Source of the DNA: Firmicutes bacterium HGW-Firmicutes-8
GTDB lineage: Bacteria > Bacillota > Thermincolia > Thermincolales > UBA2595
Assembly (NCBI GenBank): GCA_002840165.1
Contig: PGZN01000005.1
Span: forward strand, 7,478-71,477
Direction of reading: 5' to 3'
DNA length: 64,000 nucleotides
The notes beneath the pieces were generated by a model. It searched no databases and was not told the DNA's origin. It saw only the letters and a list, made by a program, of their open reading frames with translations. Made by a program: the position numbers and the translations under genes. Positions 9,645-60,818 of this stretch are shown here, piece by piece (position 1 is the stretch's first letter; every line of letters starts with the position of its first letter).

Positions 9645-11915
9645 TTGCCAAAGAGAATCAAAATATTTATCAGTCTGATTTTATTTATTATTTATACTCT
9701 GGCCTTGGCCGCCGGACCTCTGGCCGCCAAAGGTCCGGATAAGAACCTGCCGGAGCATGGGCGGGCTGTTATAGTTGTAATTGATAAGATTTCGTGGGGC
9801 GATTTTGAGAAAGCCAATATCCCGGCGCTGAAAAAACTCGCCTCTGAAGGGGCCGTCGGGTTAATGACAACAAACCCGGCCGGAGGGAGCCCCAGAATAT
9901 CTCAAAACACGTATACTACAATCGGCGCCGGCGCTAAAGTACAGGGTTCCCAGTCAGGAGGCATGGCCTTCCACTCAACGGAGAAATATGAAAACGATAC
10001 CGCCGGTGTCGAATATTACAGGCGGACAGGCCTGCATGCAGGTGACAGGCAGGTAGTTCATCTGGGCATCGGCGAAACGAAAAAAGTCAATCTTAGCTTA
10101 AAATACAGTTATTCAATTGGGGCAATCGGAACTGTACTGCACCAGAACGAGTTAAAGACAGCTGTTATCGGCAATGCCGATATGCCCGGTTACCCTCAGC
10201 GGGAACAAAGGTATCACCGCGAGGCCGTGAATATCGCCATGGATAACTCCGGGATCGTAGACTATGGCAGTATATCATCCAATTCCTATTTGCCTGATCC
10301 ACGCAGTTTGGCCGGTGTTAAAACAGACTACAGGGCATTGTTGAACGAGTTTAACTATTTAAGCCAAAAAGCCAACCTGATCGTCATAGAAACCGGCGAT
10401 ACTTCCAGAATTGAGGAAATGACTCATCTAACCTCAGACGGTGTCGGGTCGGACGAAAAACTGAAAGCCCTGGCAGAGGTTGATACATTTATCGGTCAGC
10501 TGGTTAACATAATTGACTTGAAAAAAGACCTGCTGATGGTGGTCGCACCCGGGCCGTCAAATGAGGCGATGGAGCAGGGGGACTTCCTGACTCCATTTAT
10601 CATGGCCGGGAAAGATATCAGTAAGGGGTTAGTGTGGTCCGGAACGATAAAACGAAACGGGCTCATTGCAAATATCGATGTGGCCTCCAAAATTCTCGGT
10701 TATTTCACGCTTCCTCAGGTGGTTAAGGGCGACGGAACCGAGAAAGATATTTCGCTTGGCGGTCAGGTTATTGAGAGCAGGAATTCTGCTGACCCTATGG
10801 GGAAAATATCAAAACTCGGCAGAAATGCGGTTTTTTTGTATAATGCCCGATATCCTTTTGTCAAAAGCTATATAAATTCCGAACTTATTGTCCTCATCAT
10901 ATTTCTAGGCGCTGTTATCTGGCGAAAAAAAATCGGCAGATACCTGACACCCCTATTTCTGGGGTTTACTACCGTGCCTGGGATAATGCTGTGGGTCAAT
11001 TTGTTCCCCCGCCCCTCATTGGGTATTCTGGGAATAGAAGTAATCGGGGCTGCAGCCGTGATTACTCTTGGGGCACTGTTTATTGGACGAAAAAGGCCTT
11101 TGACCCCCTTCTTGATTACTTCAGGTTTAACTGCATTATTGATCGTTATAGATATATTTATCGGCGCCCCGCTGGCCAAAACATCTCCCTTCAGTTATGA
11201 TGTGATGTCAGGGGCCAGGTTTTACGGTATCGGCAATGAATACGCGGGAGTTCTTATTGGCTGTACAGTTGTTTTTGCCGGCCTGCTTATGGATATGTTT
11301 AAACACAGTCTCAAAATAATAAAGGTAATTAACTTAATAATGTTTTTAACGGTAATATATACGATAGCGGCTCCAAATCTTGGCACGGAGGTAGGTGGTA
11401 CAATTGCCGCCGCAGCCGGGTTCGGTATCACCGGGCTGATAATGTACGGGGGGAGTATAAATAGGAGGGCTGTTATCACGATAACGGTATCAGTCGTGGC
11501 GGTTCTAACTTGTTTTATCGCTTATGATTTGACAAGAGCAGTGGAAGCCCAATCCCACATCGGTCGGACAATCACCCTAATCAGCAGTGGTGGGCCGGAC
11601 GAGATAGGCAATATTATCACTCGTAAATGGATTGTCAATTGGAGATTGATAACAGGGACTACATGGAGTTGGTATTACTTTATCAGTGTGTTGGCCGTTC
11701 CTTTATTGGGCAGGCGTTTTCCCAGTGAATGCACGAGGTTTAAAGAAAACTATCCCTGGTTCAATAAATTCCTGACCGGGGTTTTTGTGAGCAGTATCTT
11801 TACTCTTCTTTTAAACGATTCCGGCATCGTATCTGCTGCGATGATGATAACTTACGCCATTTGGCCGTTCCTGACAGGCATCATTGCGAGTTGTCAGTTG
11901 ACAGTTGACAGTTGA
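9645..11915 (+). CDS. Large membrane protein, paralog of 2455..4572
   Basis: 756 aa with the same architecture and conserved blocks (GARFYGIGNEYAGVLIG, GTEVGGTIAAAAG). The last residues (..QLTVDS) and the stop are encoded by a heptamer array. Confidence 0.7.
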   Translation: MPKRIKIFISLILFIIYTLALAAGPLAAKGPDKNLPEHGRAVIVVIDKISWGDFEKANIPALKKLASEGAVGLMTTNPAGGSPRISQNTYTTIGAGAKVQGSQSGGMAFHSTEKYENDTAGVEYYRRTGLHAGDRQVVHLGIGETKKVNLSLKYSYSIGAIGTVLHQNELKTAVIGNADMPGYPQREQRYHREAVNIAMDNSGIVDYGSISSNSYLPDPRSLAGVKTDYRALLNEFNYLSQKANLIVIETGDTSRIEEMTHLTSDGVGSDEKLKALAEVDTFIGQLVNIIDLKKDLLMVVAPGPSNEAMEQGDFLTPFIMAGKDISKGLVWSGTIKRNGLIANIDVASKILGYFTLPQVVKGDGTEKDISLGGQVIESRNSADPMGKISKLGRNAVFLYNARYPFVKSYINSELIVLIIFLGAVIWRKKIGRYLTPLFLGFTTVPGIMLWVNLFPRPSLGILGIEVIGAAAVITLGALFIGRKRPLTPFLITSGLTALLIVIDIFIGAPLAKTSPFSYDVMSGARFYGIGNEYAGVLIGCTVVFAGLLMDMFKHSLKIIKVINLIMFLTVIYTIAAPNLGTEVGGTIAAAAGFGITGLIMYGGSINRRAVITITVSVVAVLTCFIAYDLTRAVEAQSHIGRTITLISSGGPDEIGNIITRKWIVNWRLITGTTWSWYYFISVLAVPLLGRRFPSECTRFKENYPWFNKFLTGVFVSSIFTLLLNDSGIVSAAMMITYAIWPFLTGIIASCQLTVDS

Positions 11916-12002
11916 CAGTATAAAACATTTTAGCATCGTTCCCAGTAATGCGGAATGATATATATCAGATATCTGACAACTGTCAACTGACAACTGTCAA
12001 CT
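11890..12002. repeat. Inverted pair of heptamer arrays: (GTTGACA)x4 at 11890-11919 and (CTGACAA/CTGTCAA)x4 at 11973-12002
   Basis: Period-7 tandem units read directly. The second array is an imperfect reverse complement of the first, with a 53-nt spacer. Confidence 0.9.
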
Positions 12003-12021
12003 ATTAAGGAGGTATGAATTA

Positions 12022-12570
12022 ATGAAAGTAGGAATCCTCAGTGATACCCATGGTTCGGCCCTGGCTTGGGAAAAGGCCTGTAAAATTCTTGCCGGCTGTG
12101 AACTGATTGTCCATGCTGGGGATGTCCTTTATCACGGGCCGCGCAACCCTTTACCTGATGGGCATAACCCGCAGAAACTGGCTGAACTGATTAACAGCAG
12201 TCCAGTTCCCGTCATTTTTGCCAAAGGTAACTGCGACGCTGACATCGACTCGGTTCTAATCAGATACCCAATCCAGTCCCCCTATGCAGTGATTTATATT
12301 AACGGTAAGACCGTCGTAGCTGCGCACGGGACTGATATGGATGATACTGTCATCGCTGAAAAAGCTGTGATATATAAGGCGGATATTTTCATCAGCGGAC
12401 ACACCCATATTCCGAGGCTGGAAAGAAGCGGCGCCACCATATTTGTCAACCCCGGGAGCTGCGCACTGCCCAAGGGTAGTGCGGGCCCGACCGCTGCCGT
12501 TTGGGATGAAAGAGGGATAACCGTGCTGGGCATTAACGACGGTACAGTTGTTAAAGATATTAGGTTTTAG
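12022..12570 (+). CDS. YfcE/MJ0936-family metallophosphoesterase
   Basis: MKVGILSDTHG, GDVLYHGPRN, GNCD and GHTH motifs. Confidence 0.8.
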   Translation: MKVGILSDTHGSALAWEKACKILAGCELIVHAGDVLYHGPRNPLPDGHNPQKLAELINSSPVPVIFAKGNCDADIDSVLIRYPIQSPYAVIYINGKTVVAAHGTDMDDTVIAEKAVIYKADIFISGHTHIPRLERSGATIFVNPGSCALPKGSAGPTAAVWDERGITVLGINDGTVVKDIRF

Positions 12571-12661
12571 TAACATAACTGGGTTAGGGAATAGTATATA
12601 TAAAGTAAAAAAGCCACCTAAAAGGTGACTTTCACTCAAAACATTTTTGTTTAATTCTTTT

Positions 12662-12695
12662 ACTGGCCACTGGTCACTGGCAACCGGCCACTGAC
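12662..12695. repeat. Heptamer array ACTGGCC/ACTGGTC/ACTGGCA/ACCGGCC/ACTGAC
   Basis: Five consecutive 7-nt units that overlap the 3' end and stop codon of rpmB. Confidence 0.8.
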
Positions 12696-12883
12696 TTTAC
12701 GGCCCGGGTAACTTTTCCCGAACGCAGGCACCTTGTGCATACATTGAGCCGGATAGGTGTCCCGTTGACCATGGCACGAACTTTTTGGATATTAGGTGAC
12801 CATGTCCTCTTGGTCCGGATATGGGAGTGACTTACCTGAATACCTGTTGAAACTCCCTTACCGCAGATTTCACATTTAGCCAC
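12674..12883 (-). CDS. rpmB: 50S ribosomal protein L28
   Basis: MAKCEICGKGVSTGIQVSHSHIRTKRTWSPNIQKVRA.. is a typical L28. The C-terminal tail VKSVAGCQ is encoded by the heptamer array. Confidence 0.9.
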   Translation of the reverse strand: MAKCEICGKGVSTGIQVSHSHIRTKRTWSPNIQKVRAMVNGTPIRLNVCTRCLRSGKVTRAVKSVAGCQ

Positions 12884-13015
12884 GGAGATCCACCTCCTTT
12901 ACGAATTCATAGCTTTACTATTGTATCAAATAACTGGTTTAAATGCAAGACAATACAATTAAATTTGTTCCAGAGGAGGATTTATCTAGGTTTTTGTAGA
13001 AAGCTACACATGAAT

Positions 13016-13092
13016 ACAATTGACAATTGACAATTGACAATTGACAATTAGCAGCTAGCAGCTAGCAGCTAGCAACTAGCAACTAGCAACTA
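13016..13092. repeat. Composite heptamer array: (ACAATTG)x5 then (TAGCAGC)x3 then (TAGCAAC)x3
   Basis: Eleven contiguous 7-nt units that end a few nt before the RBS GAAGGAGGG of the next gene. Confidence 0.9.
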
Positions 13093-13112
13093 TTAAAGAA
13101 GGAGGGCCTGAC

Positions 13113-24189: not shown

Positions 24190-24268
24190 TACCGCACCAC
24201 CTGTCTATTGTCATAATCTTTTCATACATTACTTAGAATTATCATTTGATGAAAAAATTATTCACTAA

Positions 24269-24300
24269 GTTGACAGTTGACAGATGACAGTTGACAGTGA
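24269..24300. repeat. Heptamer array GTTGACA x4 (one GATGACA variant)
   Basis: Direct reading. It lies at the left boundary of the AT-rich islet. Confidence 0.85.
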
Positions 24301-24522
24301 TAAAAAGGATAATCCGGATACCTAGTACTATACACACGGATTATGCGGATATAGAGGCTGGGAATATTGGTCGGATAATAATTTATATAAAACAACAACA
24401 GGCATAGATCATCCAGATAAAATCAGCCAATACCAAACAAGAGTTCTATTGTTTAATTATACCGAATATGATATATTTATATTACATACTAGATATAAAA
24501 TAATTATTTTTAGGGAATACTT

Positions 24523-24927
24523 ATGATTGATGATGAATTCAAATATGGTATCGAATTTTATAAAGAAGGTAAGTCAACAAAGCGCACTGCTTGGTATTTT
24601 CTAAATCAATTAGGTAATAAAAACGACCAAGTAAGTTTCTCTCTTTTTAATGCAATTTATCATCAAATTGGTTTACTTAGGCAATTAGGTCCACTTCTAC
24701 CTATGCCTCATTCTCGAAAATTTAAGGGTAGAAAACAAAAAATACGTGAACTTAGACTCAAACATGTTACAGGATATCATAGAATATTTTACTGCCCTTG
24801 GGTTTCCAAAACATTTGTTCTACTTAATCATTTTGTAAAAGATACTGATGATACCCCACCAGAAGATATTTCTTTAGCTGAATCTCTTATGGATGATTGG
24901 CTAAGAAAAAAAGGAGGTAAAAAATAA
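24523..24927 (+). CDS. RelE/HigB-superfamily toxin, phage Gp49-like (DUF891-type)
   Basis: ..IRELRLKHVTGYHRIFYCPWVSKTFVLLNHFVKDTDDTPPEDISLAESLMDDW matches the Gp49/HigB pattern (ELR..YRIFY..vLLh.F.KKt.KTP..EI..A). The stop overlaps the next ATG (TAATG). Confidence 0.65.
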   Translation: MIDDEFKYGIEFYKEGKSTKRTAWYFLNQLGNKNDQVSFSLFNAIYHQIGLLRQLGPLLPMPHSRKFKGRKQKIRELRLKHVTGYHRIFYCPWVSKTFVLLNHFVKDTDDTPPEDISLAESLMDDWLRKKGGKK

Positions 24928-25487
24928 TGCCATCTTGGGAAGACCTTGAAAAATTAGCTAGAAAAGTTAATAACGATGAAAACTACGAAAAACTAAATAT
25001 TGGAATCGATTTTGCCTCAAAACTAATTAAAGCTAGACAAAAACATAATCTAACTCAATCTGAATTAGCTGAACTTGCTGGTTTAACACAATCGGCTATT
25101 GCAAGAATTGAAAATCACGGTAGCTTTCCTAGGTTAGACACTATTTATAAAATTGCTAATGCAATTGATTCTAATTTGGATTTTTATCCTAATAACAACG
25201 ATTTGACAGAACAATCTTCTAATGTTGATAAACTGAATGAAAAATTAACCAATTTAGAAAAACTAGTAAAAGACCTATTAATTGAAGTTCAATCTCTAAG
25301 AAAGCAAAATAAGCGTCCTTTTATTATTTTGCCAACTGGAATGTCATTCTCTGCAATAGAAACCTATAAATCTAGAATTTCTACATCTACTGGCACTGTT
25401 ATTGACGTATTACCCATCTATGCTACTCTAAAGGGAGGCGATACCTATGCTCGCAAAAACCAACAAAGATATCAATTTGTTAATTAA
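24927..25487 (+). CDS. XRE-family HTH protein with ~100-aa C-terminal extension (putative antitoxin/regulator)
   Basis: HTH LTQSELAELAGLTQSAIARIENHGSFPRLDTIYKIANAI followed by a coiled-coil-like segment (NVDKLNEKLTNLEKLVKDLLIEVQSLRKQN). Translationally coupled to the toxin gene. Confidence 0.7.
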   Translation: MPSWEDLEKLARKVNNDENYEKLNIGIDFASKLIKARQKHNLTQSELAELAGLTQSAIARIENHGSFPRLDTIYKIANAIDSNLDFYPNNNDLTEQSSNVDKLNEKLTNLEKLVKDLLIEVQSLRKQNKRPFIILPTGMSFSAIETYKSRISTSTGTVIDVLPIYATLKGGDTYARKNQQRYQFVN

Positions 25488-26139
25488 CTGGTTTAATTCT
25501 TTAGAACCTAATGATCAAGTAAATATTTTAGATTATATTCATGACAAAACAGACAAATTATTACTATCAGACGAATACCTCGATGAATTAAGTAAATTAA
25601 TTGACACTATAGAATTAATAATTATCAAAAATGGAGACGAAGAAGAAAAAATAGTAAATTTATTAATTGATTCCGGACTTGATAAAATTTTTGCTAAAGG
25701 TTTTTATAATTTTTGTGTAGAAACTGCCGCACCATATTTAGATGCAAAAGTTATATCAAAAATGCTTAAAACTAATTTAGAAAAGCTTTGCTCATTTGTA
25801 TTAAATAAAATCATTCTATTTAGAGAGTATGAGGAAACTGTATTCATAGATTTCATGAAACTAGTAGGTTTTCAAAACGATGAAAAATCCGCCAGGCGTT
25901 CTTTAAGAATTATTCGCATTCTTTATTCTGAAGTAAGTAATAGAAAGTACAGTCCTGAAACTTTAAAAATCAAACTAGAACATAAATATAAAATAAAAAA
26001 AGACAGAATTGATATTATAGTAAATCCTTTAATTGAAAACATACCTGAAATATATCATGCTAATTTACTTAATCAAGTAAATAAACTGTTATCCGACATT
26101 TCTTCTTTTTCCGCTGGATTAAACGAACCGTTAGAATAA
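25447..26139 (+). CDS. Hypothetical 230-aa protein, no recognisable domain
   Basis: Strong RBS AAGGGAGG 8 nt before the ATG. It overlaps the upstream gene by 41 nt, has the same AT-rich composition, and looks helical and Lys/Glu/Ile-rich. Confidence 0.55.
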   Translation: MLAKTNKDINLLINWFNSLEPNDQVNILDYIHDKTDKLLLSDEYLDELSKLIDTIELIIIKNGDEEEKIVNLLIDSGLDKIFAKGFYNFCVETAAPYLDAKVISKMLKTNLEKLCSFVLNKIILFREYEETVFIDFMKLVGFQNDEKSARRSLRIIRILYSEVSNRKYSPETLKIKLEHKYKIKKDRIDIIVNPLIENIPEIYHANLLNQVNKLLSDISSFSAGLNEPLE

Positions 26140-26385
26140 TATTTCATTTTTCAACATACCTTACATATAAATTTTTCTTACCGGATATTGACCATATTTC
26201 GATGTGTAACTTTCTACTTTTATACAAGTGCCGCTTGAGACAGAGAACTCAGCAGTTTATGCTGAGTTCTTCTTCGAGCTTTCGGACATAACAAAACCCC
26301 TTTTCGTCAAAAAGTCGATTGGGGGTATTTCAAATATAAACCAGACCAAATCGCGCCATCCAGTGAATCATCCATTATTATTTTT

Positions 26386-26428
26386 ATCCGCGTCGTTCCA
26401 ATCCGCGTAATCCGCGTTCATCCGCGGC
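26386..26428. repeat. GCGGAT-cluster repeat (inverted orientation copy)
   Basis: TATCCGCG..AATCCGCG..AATCCGCG..CATCCGCGGC. Its reverse complement aligns with 58016-58058 and 60344-60387. Confidence 0.8.
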
Positions 26429-26576
26429 TAATTTAATTTTGAGTTTTTCCGTACCCGGCTAGTAAGAAAAAAGTGGGGGTTGTCGCTTACCCTCTGTGTC
26501 ATCTATTTTCACTGAATCCTCGAAAACCTCTGTGTCCTGTGCCTTCTTTTCACACTGTCATCTGCCAACTGATTTA

Positions 26577-40571: not shown

Positions 40572-40602
40572 GTGTGATTAATTTACAGTCGGGGTGAATT
40601 TT

Positions 40603-42182: not shown

Positions 42183-42215
42183 AATTGTCAATTGTCAATT
42201 ATCAATTGTCAATTG
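42183..42215. repeat. Heptamer array AATTGTC x4-5 (one AATTATC variant)
   Basis: Direct reading. It is inverted relative to the ACAATTG units at 39376 and contains the stop codon of the minus-strand tmcAL-like gene. Confidence 0.9.
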
Positions 42216-43462
42216 GTGACATACGGCATCACCTTACAGTCCAACCCCTGTCTAGTTATGCTTTGACCGGGGTACATCAACGTATATATATCTGTGGCCT
42301 TCACATCGAATTTGAGCATTAATGCGGTGTCGTCATTTTGTGATAAAAAAGGGGAAGTCCTGGTAATTACTGGGATGTCGGCCTCTTTTTTGACCTTTTT
42401 TAACAGTGACCGTCCTGCGGATGATAAGCCTAAAACCCTGATATAGCGGGGGCCGGCCAGGTCAAAAGACTCGGCTAAAGACTTCGTATATCCCAATAAA
42501 ATATAGGAAAGAATCCTCTGCAGGCGGGTCCTTGTATATCGCTTTGTTTTAAGCTTGGACAGCAGGTCTTGTACGGAATCAGCAGACCGGGAAATTTCCA
42601 TAATGCGGTTTTCCAGCCCCTCAGAGACATCATACATTTCGGCTATTTGCTCTGGTGGGAGCGAGCGCAGCAAATAAAAAAGCATTTTCGAGTAATCCCT
42701 TATGAAGACCGGACCGCGGGCAGCTAAAGTCTCCTGTTTCATCACTTCAAACGAAGCCTCCGGAACGACCGGGCCAACTGCCTCGGTGATTGCCCCCTTG
42801 TCCTGAAGTTCCTCTCTGATACTGGTGGCGCTTGCAATCATAACATTTGAGTCAATATTCATGTCATGGTAACCGGCAGCAAACCTCTTGATCGTAGTTG
42901 GTCTGATATCACTTTTTACCTTCAATAGAGATTTCAGGTATTCTATCCCTAAAATGTTGTTTGGGGCCGCATAAATCTCAGGTGATATCCCGACCGATGC
43001 AGTGTCTGCCAGATATCTGGTTATAGCCCCGGCCCTGGCTGCAGGGTAGGATATTCCCGTATCTATTAATTGGCGCAAGAGAGCCTTAAACAAGGCTGGT
43101 TCATTAAACAGGAGGCGGGCTGCCGGCCACAGACTGTCAACATTACCTGATTCTGTGCCAAAGCAGAGGTGGGTCACCACCCTCATGGAATTGAGGATTG
43201 ACACTGCGCCCAGAGCAAAAGAGCTGGCACTGCGGACCGAAAACGCTGTAGGCAGCTCAATTACGAGATCGACCCCTCCCAAGACAGCCATTTTAGCCCG
43301 GGCCCACTTATTAAAAAGGGCGGGTTCGCCTCTTTGCAGGAAATGTCCGCTCATAACTGAAACTACCAGATCAGCATCGCATTGGACCCTGGCTTTTTCG
43401 ACATGATAAAGATGACCGTTATGAAAAGGGTTATGCTCTGTTATTATCCCTACAACATTCAT
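42209..43462 (-). CDS. tmcAL: tRNA(Met) cytidine acetate ligase (YlbM/TmcAL-family nucleotidyltransferase)
   Basis: GIITEHNPFHNGHLYH (HxGH) N-terminus, about 417 aa, with Bacillus ylbM-ylbN-rpmF synteny. Confidence 0.8.
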   Translation of the reverse strand: MNVVGIITEHNPFHNGHLYHVEKARVQCDADLVVSVMSGHFLQRGEPALFNKWARAKMAVLGGVDLVIELPTAFSVRSASSFALGAVSILNSMRVVTHLCFGTESGNVDSLWPAARLLFNEPALFKALLRQLIDTGISYPAARAGAITRYLADTASVGISPEIYAAPNNILGIEYLKSLLKVKSDIRPTTIKRFAAGYHDMNIDSNVMIASATSIREELQDKGAITEAVGPVVPEASFEVMKQETLAARGPVFIRDYSKMLFYLLRSLPPEQIAEMYDVSEGLENRIMEISRSADSVQDLLSKLKTKRYTRTRLQRILSYILLGYTKSLAESFDLAGPRYIRVLGLSSAGRSLLKKVKKEADIPVITRTSPFLSQNDDTALMLKFDVKATDIYTLMYPGQSITRQGLDCKVMPYVTN

Positions 43463-43481
43463 TATTTCCTCCGCATAAGTT

Positions 43482-43516
43482 AATTGTCAATTGTCAATTG
43501 TCCATTGTCAATTGTA
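43482..43516. repeat. Heptamer array AATTGTC x3 + CATTGTC + AATTGTA
   Basis: Direct reading, immediately upstream (minus sense) of the tmcAL start. Confidence 0.9.
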
Positions 43517-44388: not shown

Positions 44389-44557
44389 TTACTAGTTGCT
44401 AGTGGCTAGTGGCTGGTATAAAGTTATTAATGTCAATTATTTAATCAGGCGGTTCGCGTTTTGACGCGAACCGCCTGATTTTATACCTTCCTCGAAGCCG
44501 CAGGCATAGGGCATGTTTCATTGACAACTAACAACTAGCAACTAGCAACTAGCAACT
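44386..44557. repeat. Heptamer-array inverted-repeat module: (TAGTTGC-type)x4, internal GGTTCGCG hairpin/terminator (44443-44484), (CTAGCAA-type)x5
   Basis: The arrays at 44386-44416 and 44524-44557 are reverse complements. The hairpin is AATCAGGCGGTTCGCG/CGCGAACCGCCTGATT plus T4. The internal sequence is related to the module at 55051-55342. Confidence 0.85.
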
Positions 44558-53293: not shown

Positions 53294-54362
53294 ATCTCAC
53301 TATATAATTCCAGTTTTTGTCCCTGACCTTGGCTGTCCGCATCAGTGTGTTTTCTGTAATCAGAAAATGATTACCGGACAGGTGAGCTGCCCCACTCAAG
53401 AAGAAGTGCAGCTGACAATTACCGACTATCTAGGCACTATCCCGAGGGAGACTGGGATATTCAAAGAAGTGGCCTTCTACGGGGGAAGTTTTACATCTGT
53501 TGACCCACTCCTGCAGAAAGAACTCCTGACTCCGGCCTATAAGGCGCTGAAAAGCGGCGCTATTGAAGGCATCAGGGTATCGACAAGGCCGGATTCAATA
53601 TCGGAAGAGACGTTAGCCCTGCTGGCAAGCTACGGGGTAAGTATCGTTGAATTAGGAGTACAGTCAATGGATGATGAGGTCCTTTGCCGGTCAGGCCGGG
53701 GCCACACGAGCAGGGATGTTCTGCGGGCAGCTGCCTTAATCAAGAGTTGGGGCATCGACTTGGGGTTTCAGATGATGATTGGCCTCCCGGGAGATACAGA
53801 AGAGAAGGATATATTTACAGCATCTGAACTAATCAGCATGAAACCGGATTTGGTGCGAATTTATCCCTGCTTGGTATTGAAAAACACCAGATTGGCAGAT
53901 TTACACAAAAACGGTGATTATATTCCGCTTAATCTTGAACAGGCAGTAGTTTGCTGTAAAAGACTACTGCTGATGTTTGAAAACGCAGGAATAAACGTTA
54001 TCAGGATTGGATTACAGCCAAGCGAGCAGATCAACCTGCAGGGCGATGTGCTGGCCGGGCCGTATCATCCGGCTTTCCGTGAACTTGTGGAAACAGCAGC
54101 AGCCCGTGACCAAGTGGAACTGCTGCTGAAAAAGGCCGGCGTAAAATCGGCAAAGTTAATCGAAATTGCTGTCCCGGAGCAGGACATCTCTATAACTAGG
54201 GGGCATAAAGGGAGCAATATCGAGTATTTCAGCCGAAATCACGGAGTAACCGATTTTGTTACCGTAACAGCCCCTGAACTACCCCGCGGCACATTAAAAT
54301 TAATCAGTGTCGACGGCAGGGAGTATGGATTCACAGTAAGTAGAAAAGAACTTAGTTGCTAG
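53286..54362 (+). CDS. Radical SAM protein (Elp3/MiaB-like core)
   Basis: CPHQCVFCNQ CxxxCxxC motif near the N-terminus. The stop TAG is the first unit of a TAGTTGC array. Confidence 0.75.
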   Translation: MSKSHYIIPVFVPDLGCPHQCVFCNQKMITGQVSCPTQEEVQLTITDYLGTIPRETGIFKEVAFYGGSFTSVDPLLQKELLTPAYKALKSGAIEGIRVSTRPDSISEETLALLASYGVSIVELGVQSMDDEVLCRSGRGHTSRDVLRAAALIKSWGIDLGFQMMIGLPGDTEEKDIFTASELISMKPDLVRIYPCLVLKNTRLADLHKNGDYIPLNLEQAVVCCKRLLLMFENAGINVIRIGLQPSEQINLQGDVLAGPYHPAFRELVETAAARDQVELLLKKAGVKSAKLIEIAVPEQDISITRGHKGSNIEYFSRNHGVTDFVTVTAPELPRGTLKLISVDGREYGFTVSRKELSC

Positions 54363-54526
54363 TTGCTAGTTCCTAGTTGCTAGTATAGAGTAGGATTCAA
54401 GAGAAAAAAATGGACAGTACCTGCTTTGCGGGGACTGTCCATTTACATATTACGCTAAATACCCAACAATGAAACATTACACACTAGCACCTAACAACTA
54501 ACAACTAGCAACTAGCACCTAGCAAC
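54353..54526. repeat. Heptamer-array inverted-repeat module with internal bidirectional hairpin (54410-54442)
   Basis: (TAGTTGC/TAGTTCC)x4 at 54353-54385, the hairpin ATGGACAGT/ACTGTCCAT flanked by A7 and T3, and (CTAGCAC/CTAACAA/CTAGCAA)x6 at 54483-54526. Confidence 0.85.
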
Positions 54527-54532
54527 TGCTTT

Positions 54533-54982: not shown

Positions 54983-55050
54983 GCCAAATCTCCTTTTACA
55001 ATTTACCGTTACTCTACCCCAATTTATTGCATGATATGTAAAAAACAGGT

Positions 55051-55342
55051 GCTAGTTCCTAGTTCCTAGTTGCTAGTTGCAAGTACTGGTGATAAATGAA
55101 TTATGAGAATGTGTGGCAGGTAAAAAAGAATGACGGTTCGCGTTGAGATGCGAACCGTCATTTATAAAACCGGATTCATAAGCTGCTTTAGCGGAAACGG
55201 TCTCTGCAGCAACAAGTAGCAGCAGGGCTTCAGGGCATACTGAAGATAAAACATACTGTTATGTACAAGCTACAAAACTGAACTTAGCAACTGCGAACTA
55301 GCAACTAGCAACTAGCAACTAGCAACTAGCAACTAGCAACTA
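55051..55342. repeat. Heptamer-array inverted-repeat module: (TAGTTCC/TAGTTGC)x4, GGTTCGCG hairpin (55130-55163), (TAGCAAC)x8
   Basis: Arrays at 55051-55083 and 55285-55342. The hairpin AATGACGGTTCGC/GCGAACCGTCATT has a T run on the minus strand and so acts as the cobT terminator. The internal ..AGGGCAT.. segment resembles the 44386-44557 module. Confidence 0.85.
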
Positions 55343-56454: not shown

Positions 56455-56636
56455 ATCCTTCACATAAACCAGCTGGTTTAACAGCTAATGGCAGGTCTCC
56501 TGGCTTGTGGTCATCACATGCATTCGCCTTCCCCGGAGCGGCCGAGTGGCTGTTGAAGCATGTTCCTCACATACAGTGGCGGGTCCGCTTGGGATTTGCA
56601 CCCAATTCCCTATTCTCCTCTTTGAGGCACCAATAA
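56455..56636 (-). ncRNA. Cobalamin (B12) riboswitch aptamer
   Basis: The minus strand reads ..GGTGCCTCAAAGAGGAGAATAGGGAATTGGGTGCAAATCCCAAGCGGACCCGCCACTGTA.. and ends with the B12 box AGCCAGGAGACCTGCC (56490-56505). Confidence 0.85.
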
Positions 56637-56890
56637 CTTTTTTGTGGAATATTCTAAAAATTATATTCTAGACAGCCCTTAAAAATCCTGCTATTTAGGG
56701 AAAAAAATATTTTTTTTATAAGTGCTCAAAACCTTTCTTAGGTAATCGGGAGGCCAGAGGCCCTTTGTCGCAAAATAGGAGAAAATGTCGTCAAAAACCG
56801 ATGGTCTATAGGAGGAAACGTAATATAAAATGTAGAATTGATAATATTCACATGGAAATAAAACCAGTCTTGCCAAATTTACTATAAAGG

Positions 56891-57907
56891 GTGTATTTGA
56901 TGGTTGGATTTAACTCAGTTCCCAAGAGCCAAACCTTTATTCTGATAATGAGATTGGTCATTATCGGGTTGAGCCCAATATTATATAGTGTAAGCGGATT
57001 ATGGCCCCACTCCTATGACCTTTTGACAATTATAATATTTTCATTTATTACGATGGTCCTGACAATTTGTCATTTTAAACACTTATATCTCAAGCCGGTA
57101 CACTGGGGCATCGTTCATATTGTTGACTTAATCGCCATCAGCCTGATGGTTTTGGGCCGAAATGGGATTCACAGTGAAAGTTTCAATCTATATTACCTCG
57201 TCGTATTGCAGGCCGGACTGGTATTTGGGGTTAGGCAGGCCTTGGTATGTTTGCTGTTCGGCAACATTTTTTACGCCGGGGCGGTAATGCTGACCTCTCC
57301 GGTTGATGCCGATATCAAAAGGCTGATAGTCAGAATTATATACAGCTGGTTGGTAGGGATAACAGGCGCGTACCTGTCCTATCTGGAGAAAACGCACCAG
57401 AAGCAATCTATCATGGACTGTCTTACAAGTACTTACAACAGGTCGTTTCTTGACCAGTCTCTGAGGCATGAATTCAAACGCGCCGCTAACCGCAAAACCA
57501 ATCTCAGTGTTATCATGATTGATATTGACAATTTTAAGGTAGTTAATGATATGTACGGGCACAAGGAAGGCGATTTAGTGCTGGAACAGGTTGCCAGGAT
57601 TATTCAGTCAAACATCAGGGATGTTGACTTTGTGGCCAGGTACGGGGGCGAGGAATTCTTTGTAACACTGCCCGGGATAGGGATCGACAAGGCCCTCGAA
57701 GTAGCTGAACGGATCCGCAATGCTGTTGAAGACTCGCCTTTCAATAGACACAATACTACTCAGGAGATTCCGGTCACGGTCAGCTGTGGAGTTGCCAGTT
57801 ACCCATTCCAGGCCGAAAACCTCGACGAACTCATGAAAAGAGCTGATGATTACCTATATGAGGCCAAAAGGGCCGGAAGAAACAGGGTCCATTATAAAGC
57901 AGGATAG
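56891..57907 (+). CDS. Membrane-anchored diguanylate cyclase (GGDEF)
   Basis: Five or six N-terminal TM helices and a GGDEF domain with RYGGEEF and an RxxD-like I-site context. Confidence 0.85.
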   Translation: MYLMVGFNSVPKSQTFILIMRLVIIGLSPILYSVSGLWPHSYDLLTIIIFSFITMVLTICHFKHLYLKPVHWGIVHIVDLIAISLMVLGRNGIHSESFNLYYLVVLQAGLVFGVRQALVCLLFGNIFYAGAVMLTSPVDADIKRLIVRIIYSWLVGITGAYLSYLEKTHQKQSIMDCLTSTYNRSFLDQSLRHEFKRAANRKTNLSVIMIDIDNFKVVNDMYGHKEGDLVLEQVARIIQSNIRDVDFVARYGGEEFFVTLPGIGIDKALEVAERIRNAVEDSPFNRHNTTQEIPVTVSCGVASYPFQAENLDELMKRADDYLYEAKRAGRNRVHYKAG

Positions 57908-57914
57908 GGCTAGC

Positions 57915-57939
57915 TGACAATTGATAATTGACAATTGAC
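57915..57939. repeat. Heptamer array TGACAAT/TGATAAT/TGACAAT(+partial)
   Basis: Direct reading. The inverted partner is at 58734-58752. Confidence 0.8.
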
Positions 57940-58015
57940 CGACAGTAAAACCAGTCACAGGTTATAAAAATCAACAGTTTTACTCAACAAAGGTGCGCCT
58001 TGCAGAGTAAAAACA

Positions 58016-58058
58016 GCCGCGGATGACGCTGATAACGCGGATTAGAACGACGCGGATA
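58016..58058. repeat. GCGGAT-cluster repeat copy
   Basis: GCCGCGGATGACGCTGATAACGCGGATTAGAACGACGCGGATA aligns with 60344-60387 and with the reverse complement of 26386-26428. Confidence 0.8.
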
Positions 58059-58170
58059 AAACATATCACAAATGATAATACCCCACCAGGAAAGATACCC
58101 TGGTGGGGTATTTCTTGCTGCCATTCTTATGCATGGTAGTGTCCAGACAGATTATAACACCGCTGTCGTA

Positions 58171-58446
58171 TCATTTTGCAGTTTTTATTACTTTTAGTTC
58201 AATGTCGTGCCGTTCAACAGTTGTAGCGAGTTTATCAACCTTATTTTCTAGAACCTCAAGCTTTTCGTAATTCTGTTTGTAACCATCAAAAAGAATGTCC
58301 TTAGCTTCTTTTAACTCATTTTCTAATTTAACCTGGCCTTTTTCCAGCCTTTGCAGACCTTCTTTTAACTCACCTCGAAGTTCCTTAAAACCATTCTGCA
58401 TTTCACTATACATTTTTTCCATTAACCCAAACATCTTATCGTTCAT
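58171..58446 (-). CDS. Hypothetical coiled-coil protein (91 aa)
   Basis: RBS GTGGGGGA before the ATG (MNDKMFGLMEKMYSEMQNGFKELRGELKEGLQRLEKGQ..). The track ORF extends further upstream. Confidence 0.5.
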   Translation of the reverse strand: MNDKMFGLMEKMYSEMQNGFKELRGELKEGLQRLEKGQVKLENELKEAKDILFDGYKQNYEKLEVLENKVDKLATTVERHDIELKVIKTAK

Positions 58447-58575
58447 TGTTAATTTTCCCCCACCATTCATTTCAAATACAATTTTATCATAAGTTATATC
58501 AATATAATACCAAACGAGTGTTCGTTTGTAAATGCCTCTAAGGTTCCCCAAGCAAAAAATATCTCATCAAAGAAT

Positions 58576-58688
58576 ATACAAAGCTTGTCGATGTGCAGTA
58601 TAATATGTAGTAGCTGGGACTTAAAAGAAGATAATTAGGGAACTAAGATGTGTGGTGCAGCATTCGTCTTGGTTTCCTTTTTGTTTAC
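58576..58688 (+). promoter_or_regulatory. Duplicated promoter-leader-terminator element, copy 1
   Basis: TATAAT at 58609-58614, a transcript of about 60 nt, then stem GGAACTAAGATG / CGTCTTGGTTTCC followed by T5. Highly similar to 60399-60512. Confidence 0.55.
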
Positions 58689-58733
58689 CTGGACAATGCA
58701 CAATACACAATGGTTTCAGACTCCTATTTTTTT

Positions 58734-58752
58734 AATTGTCAATTGTCAATTG
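58734..58752. repeat. Heptamer array AATTGTC x2 + AATTGGT, followed by CTGTGGGTCGG motif (58756-58766)
   Basis: Direct reading. (ACAATGC/ACAATAC/ACAATGG) units in the opposite orientation lie at 58693-58713. Confidence 0.8.
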
Positions 58753-58774
58753 GTACTGTGGGTCGGGGGAGTTA

Positions 58775-59587
58775 TTAGCCGATAAATTCTGCTAATTCCT
58801 TGTTAAATTTATCACGCTCATCATAGAAGAGTCCGTGACCGCTGTATATAAATGGCACAAGCTTGGAATTGCTTATCCCTTGTCTTTGCGCTTCAGCCAA
58901 TGGAAAGAGACAAACTTTGTCGTGAATACCGTGAAGAATTAATGTAGGGACGCGTATTTTCCCAAGATCAGAAAATAAACCTTCTTCATTTAACCAAGAG
59001 GATGCAACCGCCACGGTGGACCAACCTGCAGCCTGTAGTCCTAATTGGAAAAACCATTCTGAAAAAGGCTCAGTCACATGCTGGAAGAAAAACGTGTTTC
59101 CAAATCCCCGCAGCATCTGAGGGCGGTCATTATATGTTTCTTGAATAAGTTTATTTACGTCTTCTTTTGATAAACCGTAAGGGAAATATGGGCGTTGAAT
59201 AAGACTGGGAGCTGCAGCTGCAAAAAGGGCGAGCTTTGATACCCCAAATCCGTTGTGGCGGGCCATGTATCGAATAGCAATCGCTCCCCCTGTGGAATGT
59301 CCAGCTAGTATGAAATATTGTAATTTAAATGCTTCAACCACATATCGAACATCGTCTGCTAACCGATCATAGTCATAGCCTCTCCAAGGCTTATCGGAAT
59401 TACCGAAGCCTCTGGTATCTATGCCGATGCAGCGATATCCCATTTTGGGCAGCTGATCAAACTGATATTCAAACATCCTATGGTTCGCAGGCCAACCGTG
59501 TATAAACAAAATTGTCTTTCTGCCCCCTGGATTAAGATCTTCTACATAAATATTTACGTCTGGTTCGACTCTAACATAGTATCCCAT
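58775..59587 (-). CDS. Alpha/beta hydrolase (non-haem haloperoxidase/arylesterase-like)
   Basis: HGWP.., nucleophile elbow GHSTGG, and C-terminal HG..D. RBS TGGAGGA before ATG 59587. Confidence 0.8.
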   Translation of the reverse strand: MGYYVRVEPDVNIYVEDLNPGGRKTILFIHGWPANHRMFEYQFDQLPKMGYRCIGIDTRGFGNSDKPWRGYDYDRLADDVRYVVEAFKLQYFILAGHSTGGAIAIRYMARHNGFGVSKLALFAAAAPSLIQRPYFPYGLSKEDVNKLIQETYNDRPQMLRGFGNTFFFQHVTEPFSEWFFQLGLQAAGWSTVAVASSWLNEEGLFSDLGKIRVPTLILHGIHDKVCLFPLAEAQRQGISNSKLVPFIYSGHGLFYDERDKFNKELAEFIG

Positions 59588-59663
59588 GTGAATTCCTCCA
59601 TTTAGCAAAGGTTTTTGTAGTAACAATATATTGACATGGGCATTAATAGGTGAGCTGCCTTAA

Positions 59664-59684
59664 ACAATTAACAATTGACAATGC
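59664..59684. repeat. Heptamer array ACAATTA/ACAATTG/ACAATGC
   Basis: Direct reading. The inverted partner is at 60798-60818. Confidence 0.75.
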
Positions 59685-59721
59685 CCGCTTAATATAGGTA
59701 CAAAATTAAGGGAAGGGACTG

Positions 59722-60180
59722 GTGTATCTGCAAATTAAAAAAGTTGTCGGCAGTACTGTTGCAATGTTATCTGTGAGCGGGATGCTGCTCACGGGGCCTT
59801 TCAGCATGTCTCCGGTAACAGCCTCTGTATCATCAGGGCAATTGCAGACCTACACGGCTCATGGTCAAACACATGGGGGAAAACATGGCTGTAAAATGCT
59901 GGATACAGTCAGCCAACTCACAGGTTTAACCCCTGACCAGATTAAAATCCAGCGCAAGGCCGGGAAATCCCTGGCCCAAATCGCCCAAAGCAAGGGAGTA
60001 TCTGAGGAGAAGCTGATTGCAGCCATCATGGAGCCGATTAAAGCCAAGTTCCAGAAACGAGTCAGCGAAGGCAAAATCACTCCGGAAAAAGCCAAAGAAA
60101 TCCTGGCCAAAATCGAACAGAAGGTTAAAACCAGGGTTAACAACACCAAACCCCCGCAGGAGCACCGCATCAAAGGCTAG
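59722..60180 (+). CDS. Hypothetical secreted protein (152 aa)
   Basis: GTG start with RBS AAGGGAAGGGA, a signal-peptide-like N-terminus and a Lys-rich helical C-terminus. Confidence 0.5.
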   Translation: MYLQIKKVVGSTVAMLSVSGMLLTGPFSMSPVTASVSSGQLQTYTAHGQTHGGKHGCKMLDTVSQLTGLTPDQIKIQRKAGKSLAQIAQSKGVSEEKLIAAIMEPIKAKFQKRVSEGKITPEKAKEILAKIEQKVKTRVNNTKPPQEHRIKG

Positions 60181-60224
60181 CATCGCATCAATAAAGCCTT
60201 TGTGAGCCGCAGGACCGACCCGCA

Positions 60225-60271
60225 AAAGAGCAGCCTCTGCCGGCCAAATACCGCAGAGGGCTGCTCTTTTA
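60225..60271 (+). terminator. Rho-independent terminator
   Basis: AGAGCAGCCTCTGC / GCAGAGGGCTGCTCT stem followed by TTT. Confidence 0.7.
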
Positions 60272-60343
60272 GTGACCACTAGCCAGTAAAAAGAAATCAC
60301 CGAGGGCACAGAGTGTCAAAGTAGAGAACACAGAGAAAAAAAC

Positions 60344-60387
60344 GGCCACGGATGGCACGGAATACGCGGATTAGAACGACGCGGATA
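60344..60387. repeat. GCGGAT-cluster repeat copy (preceded by CACAGAG motifs 60305-60335)
   Basis: GGCCACGGATGGCACGGAATACGCGGATTAGAACGACGCGGATA. Confidence 0.8.
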
Positions 60388-60398
60388 TAATGGATGAA

Positions 60399-60512
60399 TA
60401 GACAAAGCCTGTCGATGTGCGGTATAATATGTAGTAAGCTGGGACTTATAAGAAGATAATTAGGGAACTAAGATGAGTGGTGCAGCATTCGTCTGAGTTT
60501 CCTTTTTGTTTT
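60399..60512 (+). promoter_or_regulatory. Duplicated promoter-leader-terminator element, copy 2
   Basis: TATAAT at 60423-60428, stem 60466-60477 / 60490-60502, then T5. Lies upstream of the small membrane ORF 60594..60788. Confidence 0.55.
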
Positions 60513-60593
60513 GTTTGGCTTTCACCAACTAGTCTCGCTTCACCGGCTGTCACGGTTTTAGCGAAATAAACTTAATAAAAGAGGGGTGTTGTT

Positions 60594-60788
60594 ATGTTTA
60601 GAGCAATTCCATTTGCATTCTTTTCCGTTATTTATTTAGTAACACTGGGATTCTCAATCTATGGATTTGTGCTTTTTATTAAACTAGCTCGCAGAGGAAT
60701 CACTGCTCTTGATATTTATATCAATGAGAAATCAAAAATGGAGAACATGGATCCTATGGAACGCGAGCAGTTAGGCCGGCAGGAGTAA
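60594..60788 (+). CDS. Small membrane protein (64 aa)
   Basis: RBS AGAGGGGTG 6 nt before the ATG, one or two TM helices (IPFAFFSVIYLVTLGFSIYGFVLFI) and an acidic tail. Confidence 0.5.
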   Translation: MFRAIPFAFFSVIYLVTLGFSIYGFVLFIKLARRGITALDIYINEKSKMENMDPMEREQLGRQE

Positions 60789-60797
60789 TCTCTTTAT

Positions 60798-60818
60798 AAT
60801 TGTCAATTGTTAATTGCA
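60798..60818. repeat. Heptamer array AATTGTC/AATTGTT/AATTGCA followed by CTGTGGGTCGG (60823-60833)
   Basis: Direct reading. Confidence 0.75.

Follow-up and report, generated by a model that had tools for sequence, protein, structure and literature searches.

Tandem heptanucleotide arrays in the intergenic DNA of a Bacillota genome, and their inverted pairing around terminators

We analyzed a stretch of 64,000 nucleotides (the window) from contig PGZN01000005.1 of Firmicutes bacterium HGW-Firmicutes-8, in which short tandem arrays of 7-nucleotide (nt) units recur between genes, among them rpmB, tmcAL, rpmF, fapR and cobT. Judged by TmcAL and CobT, this uncultured bacterium is closest, among named organisms, to Phosphitispora and Thermincola (Bacillota), at 60-75% identity, and so belongs to the old 'Peptococcaceae' group. 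The identity of the arrays is secure: they are heptanucleotide microsatellites of the kind called short tandemly repeated repetitive (STRR) sequences or long simple sequence repeats. The phenomenon is familiar but still unexplained, and in this case the host lineage belongs to the Bacillota. Knowledge of heptamer repeats between genes goes back to about 1990 (STRR); they are statistically over-represented across prokaryotes, and their function and mechanism are not established. In the window, arrays that share a spacer are inverted relative to each other, and several such pairs enclose a terminator-like hairpin. The window and two close relatives together make a natural experiment, in which array positions were kept, units were swapped, and paired arms changed jointly around a terminator.

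Results

Period-7 arrays in the spacers of the window

Using Tandem Repeats Finder (TRF) and an independent period scan, we found 19 period-7 arrays of 2.7-12 units each. They comprise at least five unit types and lie in 13 spacers spread over 49 kb of the window. Every array listed in an earlier description made from the letters of the DNA alone (the sequence-only reading) was recovered within 1-2 nt, and we found one more (58693-58711). That reading had put the arrays at 3-12 units. This holds for most of them, but the arrays at 58734, 59663 and 60798 (we name arrays by their first position) have fewer than three copies. The array at 12662 is degenerate (76% matches). The arrays and the hairpins that lie between some of them are as follows.

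11889-11919, + strand: array B, (A)GTTGAC x 4.4; last 9 codons and TGA stop of the gene for a 756-amino-acid (aa) membrane protein; 5' arm of an inverted pair
11973-12002, - strand: array B', CTGACAA/CTGTCAA x 4.3; reverse complement of B; ends 19 nt before a phosphoesterase ATG, against the ribosome-binding site (RBS); 3' arm
12662-12695, no strand assigned: array D, ACTGGCC x 4.6, degenerate; overlaps the last 7 codons of minus-strand rpmB
13016-13049, + strand: array A, ACAATTG x 4.9 (TTGACAA on the + strand); spacer of the divergent rpmB and DUF1858 genes
13049-13092, - strand: arrays C'/C, TAGCAGC x 3 then TAGCAAC x 3; contiguous with the preceding array A; end 20 nt before the ATG of the DUF1858 gene
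24268-24298, + strand: array B, AGTTGAC x 4.4; left edge of a low-GC toxin-antitoxin islet
39376-39458, + strand: composite array of 12 units, ACAATTG/ACAATGG x 5.7 then GGAGAGT x 6.3; left edge of a type II restriction-modification islet, with the called endonuclease start inside
42183-42215, - strand: array A, AATTGTC x 4.7; overlaps the last 2 codons and stop of minus-strand tmcAL; right edge of the restriction-modification islet
43482-43515, - strand: array A, AATTGTC x 4.9; ends 19 nt before the tmcAL start codon
44386-44416, + strand: array C, TAGTTGC/TAGTGGC x 4; begins with the stop of rpmF; 5' arm of an inverted pair
44443-44480, + strand: terminator-like hairpin of rpmF, a 16-bp stem then TTTTAT; enclosed by the C pair
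44524-44557, - strand: array C, (A/G)CAACTA x 4.7; 3' arm; upstream of a promoter-like site of fapR
54353-54385, + strand: array C, TAGTTGC x 4.6; overlaps the last 3 codons of a radical SAM gene; arm of a pair between convergent genes
54410-54442, no strand assigned: hairpin with flanking A and T runs, inside the second C pair; would allow two-way termination
54483-54527, - strand: array C, ACTAGCA/CCTAACA x 6.4; ends 5 nt from the stop of a minus-strand 149-aa gene
55050-55084, + strand: array C, TAGTTCC/TAGTTGC x 5; upstream of the 149-aa gene; arm of the third C pair
55129-55162, - strand: intrinsic terminator of cobT, a 13-bp stem then CTTTTTT; inside the third C pair and about 95% conserved in relative L208 (see below)
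55285-55342, - strand: array C, TAGCAAC x 8.3; ends 2 nt from the cobT stop codon
57915-57939, + strand: array A, TGACAAT x 3.6; 7 nt past the stop of a GGDEF gene
58693-58711, + strand: short degenerate array, ACAATGC/ACAATAC x 2.7; inverted relative to the array at 58734
58734-58752, - strand: array A, AATTGTC x 2.7; 22 nt past the stop of a minus-strand hydrolase gene
59663-59684, + strand: array A, AACAATT/GACAATG x 2.9; 37 nt upstream of a DUF2680 gene
60798-60818, - strand: array A, AATTGTC x 2.7; between convergent genes

The period is specific. At a strict threshold, the window has 14 arrays of period 7, one of period 11, and none of periods 4-6, 8-10 or 12. Period-7 arrays reach a density of 219 per Mb, ~14 times the 15.5 per Mb found in 452 kb of unrelated metagenome contigs. 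Period 7 is likewise the commonest repeat period in those background contigs, and arrays of period 5, 6, 8 or 9 were not found in the same 452 kb. The sporadic period-7 arrays of the background (L214, 4058-4089 and 5302-5338; L217; L235; L259) have ordinary surroundings. They are built of unrelated units (TCGGTAG, AAGGTTC, AAATCCC), and one of these arrays lies directly 3' of a cobT homologue.

The arrays are excluded from coding DNA, where they could have been equally common. By the gene calls that accompany the source contigs, the midpoints of 16 of the 19 arrays are intergenic, in a window that is 87.6% coding (p about 3e-15). The other three clip gene ends only: 9 codons at the end of the gene for the 756-aa membrane protein, 7 at the end of rpmB, and the first 15 after the called start of the endonuclease gene. 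The sequence-only reading, which had placed all arrays between genes or over the last few codons of a gene, is borne out, with one overlap at what is probably a mis-called start. The called endonuclease start (39414) lies inside the GGAGAGT array and is almost certainly wrong, since the match to the endonuclease profile begins about 40 residues after 39540.

Within the spacers, the arrays crowd against gene boundaries. Nine start no more than 10 nt from a stop codon, and about half of all arrays lie at gene 3' ends. Three end 19-20 nt before a start codon, flush with the ribosome-binding site, and the genes of the window keep strong GGAGG sites. Some C-termini and stop codons are themselves encoded by arrays (11889-11915, 12674-12695 and 42209-42215). 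The 756-aa membrane protein ends in ...CQLTVDS* and ribosomal protein L28 in ...SVAGCQ*, and TmcAL has 417 aa in the window versus 424 aa in a relative with 95% identity. Because arrays encode the C-terminal residues and stops of real genes, their growth rewrites protein tails. In practice, the arrays break short-read assemblies, mislead gene callers on starts and stops, and alter protein C-termini.

The arrays are present in independent assemblies

The window lies inside ENA contig ERZ27239245:k141_26875, and is identical to it and to JGI contig Ga0246100_100257 except for one 3-nt indel (ACC) at 63114, outside the arrays. This is the sole difference in the ~62 kb compared, so the window is a separate assembly of essentially the same strain. 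Two short Logan contigs (run SRR3546457), corresponding to window positions 11974-13045 and 42188-43509, are also identical to the window. Both ends of these contigs are inside arrays, the behavior expected of repeats that occur at many loci. An assembly artifact, which the sequence-only reading had named as a possibility, is ruled out: the ENA contig, the JGI contig and the two Logan contigs carry identical array sequence.

Related units and inverted pairs

The unit types are closely related. Written in one register, they make up a network in which neighbors differ by one or two bases: CAATTGA (type A), CAGTTGA (type B), TAGTTGC (type C), TAGTGGC (a variant of type C, at 44386) and CAGTGGC (type D). 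The composite array at 39376-39458 shows such steps in place, passing from ACAATTG through ACAATGG to AGAGTGG. Units of types A and B consist of TTGACA, the -35 consensus, and one further base; read in the TTGACA direction, three units are enough to put a TGA in each reading frame. Because of its CTAG, type C has TAG on either strand.

We found that related arrays in the same spacer are inverted in every case (5/5: 11889/11973, 44386/44524, 54353/54483, 55050/55285 and 58693/58734). Folding predicts an arm-to-arm stem of ~30 bp with periodic mismatches for four of the five, with minimum free energies (MFE) of -49 to -107 kcal/mol and z-scores of -7.9 to -9.6, and these stems dominate the minimum-energy folds. 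The values are MFE -49.4 and z -8.3 for 11889/11973; MFE -77.3 and z -9.5 for 44386/44524 (between rpmF and fapR); z -9.6 on the + strand and -9.2 on the - strand for 54353/54483; and z -7.9 for 55050/55285 (3' of cobT). The stem of 58693/58734 is short and weak (z -0.65). The sequence-only reading had proposed stems between arrays 50 bp to 2.8 kb apart. The same-spacer pairs, with gaps of about 20-200 nt, agree with that proposal, but the "pairs" separated by 0.8-2.8 kb are neighboring arrays and not credible stems.

All three C pairs have a terminator-like hairpin between their arms: that of rpmF (44443-44480), one between convergent genes (54410-54442), and that of cobT (55129-55162). Two of these enclosed hairpins have similar stems (GGTTCGCG...CGCGAACC).

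Close relatives keep the positions of arrays and change their units

We compared array positions in two relatives: L129 (Logan run SRR24746585; TmcAL 95% identical, flanks about 97%) and L208 (ENA sample ERZ27247322; 93-95% nucleotide identity). At the five orthologous positions compared (93-97% nucleotide identity), an array was kept at all five, and its unit had changed at four. Array lengths also vary between the window and the relatives.

yceD-tmcAL spacer (43482 array): window ACAATTG; L129 ACAGTTG (type B), in register in every unit
tmcAL 3' end (42183 array): window GACAATT; L129 GACAATT
GGDEF gene 3' end (57915 array): window type A; L208 type B
rpmF-fapR pair: window TAGTTGC...GCAACTA; L129 GGAGTAC...GTACTCC
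cobT 3' pair: window TAGTTGC...GCAACTA; L208 AGTTGAC...GTCAACT

At the two inverted pairs (rpmF-fapR and cobT 3'), both arms switched unit together and complementarity was kept. The L129 pair at rpmF-fapR, although different in sequence, still folds arm to arm (z -7.5). At cobT, the window and L208 share about 95% identity in the terminator core and in the flanking sequence inside and outside the arms, which indicates that the arms turned over in place and that no new cassette was brought in. In L129, the position of the hairpin and T run in the loop between the rpmF arms fits an inversion, but in neither orientation does the remaining loop align well. The arms are thus shown to co-vary at two loci. 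The cause of this co-variation may be selection for the stem or templated correction between inverted repeats. A joint change of arms around a terminator is the signature expected of a maintained structure.

Slightly more distant relatives differ sharply. No period-7 arrays were found in the 21-kb syntenic loci of relatives with CobT 84%, CobT 80% or TmcAL 67% identical, and the spacers of these array-free relatives (67-84% protein identity) are much shorter. The absence of arrays at this distance suggests that they proliferated recently and in a narrow lineage. The sequence-only reading had held that a lack of conserved position or type in related genomes would refute it; positions are indeed conserved in close relatives, but the unit type is not, and at or below 84% protein identity there are no arrays at all. 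If the arrays are neutral, this on/off pattern between close relatives would point to a lineage-specific change in replication or repair.

Heptamer arrays in other phyla

ACAATTG occurs in three exact tandem copies in at least 120 stretches of GTDB genomes. The hosts among the matches listed include Cyanobacteria, Bacteroidota, Clostridia, Chloroflexota, Planctomycetota, Patescibacteria and others, some of them cultured and with complete genomes. Haloimpatiens lingqiaonensis (CP172402), Calothrix NIES-2100 (AP018178) and Bacteroides stercorirosoris DSM 26884 are examples of complete genomes that bear arrays. Among these listed matches, the Clostridia include Haloimpatiens, Clostridium liquoris and Oscillospiraceae, and the cyanobacteria include Calothrix, Anabaena, Crocosphaera and Microcoleus. 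Other Bacillota hold both A and B arrays.

We counted stretches of viral contigs with three exact copies of window units and of two control heptamers. There were 29 for ACAATTG, 16 for GTTGACA and 11 for TAGCAAC, compared with 6 for a permuted control (ATAGACT) and 10 for a palindromic control (AGAATTC). All five heptamers, controls included, are far above chance for a 21-mer. Heptamer arrays of many sequences arise everywhere, and the units of the window are modestly favored (ACAATTG 3-5 times the controls). The excess of the control heptamers weakens the idea that a sequence-specific factor or horizontal transfer lies behind the ACAATTG arrays of many phyla. Expansion driven by palindromes also has no clear support, as the enrichment of AGAATTC over the non-palindromic control is below that of ACAATTG. 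In some IMG/VR contigs (L141, L148, L153 and L165), inverted ACAATTG/ACAATGG pairs with gaps of 52-56 nt recur every ~660 bp, which suggests a larger tandem structure that contains the array pairs.

The regularities of the window recur in a cross-phylum set of 863 kb of loci that were chosen for ACAATTG arrays. These loci hold 285 arrays of period 7, versus 34 of period 8 and fewer of other periods. Only 35% of array bases are in open reading frames (ORFs), versus 85% of bases overall. Related neighboring arrays no more than 400 nt apart are inverted in 36 cases and direct in 11 (p = 3e-4). Strong hairpins (z below -2) are present in 13 of 27 loops between arms, many of them followed by T runs.

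The inverted pairs have a polarity. Of the A/B-type pairs in the cross-phylum loci, 25 have the arm with top-strand TTGAC in first place and 3 have it in second. Either layout of the arms gives the same duplex, so thermodynamics cannot explain this 25:3 ratio. Orientation also depends on the distance from the stop codon. Since ORFs end at sense-strand stops, which would make the test circular, we confined it to arrays that begin after the stop codon. Those that begin 1-20 nt past an ORF stop have the stop-containing orientation on the sense strand in ratios of 28:9 (A/B units) and 14:7 (other units), and at 21-80 nt the orientation is reversed (12:22). This dependence fits the order stop codon, first arm, loop, second arm. 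The polarity may come from a filter for stop-rich arrays at gene ends, from avoidance of outward-facing -35-like motifs, or from a functional requirement. The arrays of the window obey the same rules. The inverted excess, the polarity, the orientation relative to stop codons and the terminators in the loops together turn an old curiosity into testable hypotheses.

Relation to known heptamer repeats

The window arrays have the properties of heptanucleotide long simple sequence repeats: they are tandem and non-coding, of several types at several loci, sporadic, and fast to diverge. The sequence-only reading had judged them closest to the cyanobacterial STRR, and we agree, since both are intergenic tandem heptamers of several unit types in sporadic lineages. 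Mazel reportedly described STRR heptamers in filamentous cyanobacteria in 1990. The canonical STRR units are CCCCAGT, TTGGTCA and CAACAGT. Like the window arrays, STRR are tandem 7-nt units, of several types per genome, intergenic, and often able to form hairpins near gene 3' ends or between cistrons. In the strict sense, the window arrays are not STRR: their host is a Bacillota related to Thermincola and Phosphitispora, not a heterocystous or filamentous cyanobacterium, and their units are not the canonical ones. The 7-bp STRR of cyanobacteria are described as forming hairpins between genes, for which an effect on the stability or termination of transcripts has been proposed (PMC2670836). A 1995 paper by Jackman and Mulligan on closely related cyanobacteria (cited in PMC2670836) speaks in its title of "highly variable but structured intergenic regions". 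By that title, the intergenic regions of close strains vary yet stay structured, as we see in L129 and L208; the likeness to our arm co-variation is judged from the title and from secondary citations.

Surveys of simple sequence repeats (Mrazek, Guo and Shah 2007; Huang and Mrazek 2014; via PMC4679880 and PMC4692102) are summarized as finding an excess of 5-11-nt units, period 7 commonest, sporadic and biased to intergenic DNA, and as proposing polymerase slippage. The period-7 excess, sporadic occurrence and intergenic bias are those of the window. These surveys are a census and not a description of loci, and inverted pairing around terminators and co-variation of arms do not appear in what is summarized of them. 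The sequence-only reading knew of no equivalent in Firmicutes. Our literature search likewise found no description of such arrays in Firmicutes, but ACAATTG arrays do exist in Clostridia, and the heptamer excess across prokaryotes is published. The exact array strings, when searched for in the literature, matched a synthetic lac promoter primer, a coronavirus genome and nothing else.

TAACTGA repeats are reported from Beggiatoaceae, Cyanobacteria and Bacteroidetes as intergenic arrays of 2-43 copies that lie immediately before start codons or after stops. These arrays are intermingled with other heptamers, close relatives do not have them, and contigs break at them (MacGregor 2015; PMC4679880). 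The unit CAACTGA of the window is one base from TAACTGA, and both have stops in all three frames. In contrast to the Beggiatoa genome, which is reported to have one dominant unit and 1 indirect repeat in 170 sets (PMC4679880), the window has at least five units, and inverted pairs are the rule. The proposed role of TAACTGA in translational regulation rests, in that account, on genes that lack an RBS (PMC4679880), whereas the genes of the window keep a strong GGAGG. TAACTGA arrays were not found in the window by TRF.

GGGAATC and GGGGA(T/C)T repeats of Xanthomonas and Nostoc are described as intergenic, with some inverted pairs able to form stem-loops (Rehm 2015; PMC4692102). In Xanthomonas, heptamer repeats are reported at the same gene junctions in related species, with variable length and sequence (PMC4692102). 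They thus resemble the window arrays in being intergenic, in part inverted, and retained in position while the sequence varies. However, those repeats are G-rich and have been studied as G-quadruplex formers, and the window units cannot form quadruplexes.

The repetitive extragenic palindromes (REPs) of Proteobacteria, and the bacterial interspersed mosaic elements (BIMEs) and REPINs that contain them, have been linked to termination and stabilization of mRNA (PMC3733652). They are extragenic, lie just past stop codons and form hairpins from inverted pairs, and they are the closest analogue in what the window pairs would do. They differ in that REPs are single imperfect palindromes of 20-40 bp that are conserved and mobilized by RAYT, whereas the window arms are tandem heptamers that turn over in place. 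No RAYT or other transposase gene was found near the arrays in the window. We agree with the sequence-only reading that the arrays are neither REP/BIME, since their arms are tandem heptamers with no conserved palindromic unit, nor clustered regularly interspaced short palindromic repeats (CRISPR), in which repeats of about 23-50 nt alternate with unique spacers of like length, since the 7-nt units are contiguous and have no spacers.

Heptanucleotide repeats upstream of Haemophilus influenzae hmw1A and hmw2A are reported to be phase-variable by slippage (PMC8262952, PMC12721329), and a 5'-untranslated element targeted by RNase III is reported to be required for the effect (PMC12721329). These are also 7-nt tandem repeats in a 5' region. 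They are single contingency loci for surface adhesins, whereas the window arrays occur across housekeeping spacers, many of them at gene 3' ends.

Discussion

An explanation for the arrays and their pairing

We propose that the arrays are born by slippage, and that complementary arms form stems around terminators and insulate neighboring genes against read-through; we give this explanation a probability of about 0.5. Arrays would arise and be remodeled by replication slippage in non-coding spacers of a narrow, recent, permissive lineage. A mutated unit could spread through its array, so that unit types one or two bases apart would result. The networks of one-base steps between units, and the homogenization within arrays, suggest slippage as the generator. 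Growth would stop at a functional boundary, a stop codon or a ribosome-binding site, sometimes after overrunning the last codons of a gene. The inverted arrays of a spacer would be kept complementary by templated correction from arm to arm, by selection, or by both, and the paired arms would form a stem of ~30 bp around the intrinsic terminator of the upstream gene. A terminated mRNA would then hold the first arm only, and a read-through transcript would hold both and form a long double-stranded stem. Such a stem might block or mark the read-through transcript, as a substrate for RNase III or a barrier to exonucleases, and so insulate neighboring transcription units. The RNase III gene, rnc, lies in the window at about 52.5-53.3 kb.

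Several points weigh against this explanation. Array lengths are equal across the available assemblies of this strain, which are nearly identical and show no copy-number polymorphism, so slippage is read from patterns between species only; a metagenome scan for further strains in which to compare copy number gave one close match, which was already known. Variants within an arm are not mirrored at the opposite pairing position (e.g., TAGTTCC at 54353 and 55050). The arms therefore match by unit family and not by base, and templated correction or drift fits this as well as selection does. Many arrays are unpaired (13016, 24268, 43482 and 57915), so the stem cannot explain why arrays exist. The arms lie 30-100 nt from the terminator hairpin, a distance that simple extension of a palindrome would not give. 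Finally, a role of the stem at the level of RNA is something that we infer purely from the sequence, as the sequence-only reading did for every function that it named.

Neutral arrays and a general terminator module

The main rival to the slippage-and-stem explanation is that the arrays are neutral or selfish microsatellites from a slippage-prone background, tolerated where they are harmless, with arms made complementary by template switching (quasipalindrome correction). We regard this as possible, though distinctly less probable. Neutral arrays would explain the fast turnover of units, the array-free state of slightly more distant relatives, and the filling of spacers up to stop codons and ribosome-binding sites with gene ends overrun. 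They would also account for the generality of period 7, which is preferred even in unrelated contigs, and for the triplets of control heptamers in viral contigs, which are far above chance (6 and 10, vs 29, 16 and 11 for the window units). The matching of arms by unit family and not base by base fits as well, and polymerase slippage has been proposed in the literature (as given in PMC4679880 and PMC4692102). However, neutrality leaves both the polarity and the link to terminators unexplained. Slippage alone predicts neither the 25:3 polarity nor the 36:11 excess of inverted pairs, and orientation depends on distance from the stop codon (28:9 within 20 nt and reversed further off). Pairs repeatedly enclose terminators, and positions were retained while the sequences turned over.

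A broader proposal goes beyond the window. Inverted pairs might be a widespread module of fixed polarity, consisting of a stop codon, a stop-rich arm, an intrinsic terminator and a complementary arm, in which complementarity is selected and the sequence drifts freely. In Bacillota, Bacteroidota, Cyanobacteria and others, the module would insulate transcription units or serve as a fail-safe terminator. First arms such as (UUGACAA)n and (UAGUUGC)n have stops in all three frames. We consider this generalization unlikely as it stands. If true, a fail-safe terminator module would be the first general function for heptamer repeats known since about 1990.

Protein-binding sites, insertion sites and mobile cassettes

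The arrays could instead be periodic binding sites for a protein that tunes translation, antitermination or promoters, either a binder of single-stranded RNA (cold-shock protein, ribosomal protein S1 or a HutP-like ring) or a sigma factor. HutP reads UAG triplets 7 nt apart, and UAG-N4 is what either strand of a type C array reads. TTGACA is part of units A and B, and an internal match to TTGACA-17 nt-GACAAT is present in arrays of at least five units. All five A/B arrays upstream of genes, except the 3' arm at 11973, point TTGACA at that gene. Units that contain TTGACA are also 2-5 times commoner than the two control units, and three arrays abut an RBS, as reported for TAACTGA repeats (PMC4679880). 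We nevertheless think binding sites improbable. At least five unit types interchange, with different units at one position in close relatives, which a sequence-specific binder would not tolerate. The TTGACA motifs of pairs point inward to the terminator and not to the flanking genes, about half of the arrays are at gene 3' ends, and a 7-bp period is out of helix phase for binding to double-stranded DNA.

Somewhat less probable still is that the arrays are hot spots for recombination or insertion, serving as entry sites for restriction-modification and toxin-antitoxin modules or for inversion of segments. The restriction-modification islet (about 39.5-41.8 kb) lies between the arrays at 39376 and 42183 and is absent from the 67% relative, the array at 24268 borders the low-GC toxin-antitoxin islet, and five arrays lie in a variable, toxin-antitoxin-rich region (57-61 kb). 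The terminator between the rpmF arms of L129 appears reversed, and MacGregor suggested a role in rearrangement for long arrays (PMC4679880). Yet most arrays flank housekeeping genes (rpmB, rpmF, tmcAL, cobT) whose order is unchanged, and the variable region of L208 has different toxin-antitoxin modules with no arrays among them. The L129 loop retains little similarity in either orientation, and the relative without the islet is also without arrays, so that cause and effect cannot be separated. The support from two islets that border arrays is anecdotal.

We reject the idea that the array-terminator-array segments are copies of a small mobile element, like a MITE (miniature inverted-repeat transposable element) or REPIN, with heptamer terminal inverted repeats: the three share a layout (arm, hairpin, arm), two of the enclosed hairpins have similar stems, and Logan contigs break at arrays as they do at dispersed repeats, but once the arrays are masked the interiors have no significant similarity, the window shows no evident target-site duplications or transposase genes, positions are conserved in relatives, and at cobT the arms changed unit in place around an interior and flanks that are orthologous at about 95%.

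Islets, other repeats and neighboring features

The arrays have no match in Rfam; only a cobalamin riboswitch and a tRNA reach gathering score in the window. The riboswitch (RF00174, 121 bits; 56473-56649, minus strand) lies upstream of cobT, and the tRNA-Pro at 663-739 is the only other Rfam or tRNA match.

Two islets adjoin arrays. The type II restriction-modification islet (about 39540-41814; GC 0.37) encodes a NotI-like endonuclease and a C5 cytosine methyltransferase, and lies between tmcAL and a gene for a Gate-domain transporter. In GCA_016841045.1 (the 67% relative), tmcAL directly adjoins the Gate-domain transporter gene. The low-GC islet (24523-26139; GC 0.31) begins just past the array at 24268-24298 and encodes a Gp49/HigB-like toxin, a helix-turn-helix antitoxin and a 230-aa protein. 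Pfam and PADLOC gave no candidate for a repeat-making enzyme in these islets, only ordinary toxin-antitoxin and type II restriction-modification genes.

A variable region (56900-64000) adjoins cobT in the window and in L208; in L131 and L135 (80-84% CobT identity), cobT is next to smc and ftsY. Its genes encode GGDEF, hydrolase, DUF2680, and PIN or other toxin-antitoxin proteins. The content differs between the window and L208, which adds a DDE transposase.

Other repeats are present. A 116-bp dispersed repeat occurs at 58572-58686 and 60396-60511, with copies 93% identical and pieces in L208. It has a promoter-like TAGACA-18 nt-TATAAT (60399-60428) and, at 60471-60494, a hairpin with a T-rich tail after it, and is a possible small RNA or leader element. 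A heptamer array lies within 7 nt on the 3' side of the first copy, and a small ORF follows the second by about 80 nt. A second family, of ACGCGGAT-like motifs (e.g., ACGCGGATTAGAACGACGCGGATA), is at 26382-26429, 58015-58061 and 60358-60387, with similar sequence at 24310-24350; it sits in spacers beside heptamer arrays and where the low-GC islet has its right edge. A 77-bp direct repeat (61692-61768 and 62945-63021; 91% identical) lies in the variable region, which is rich in small ORFs.

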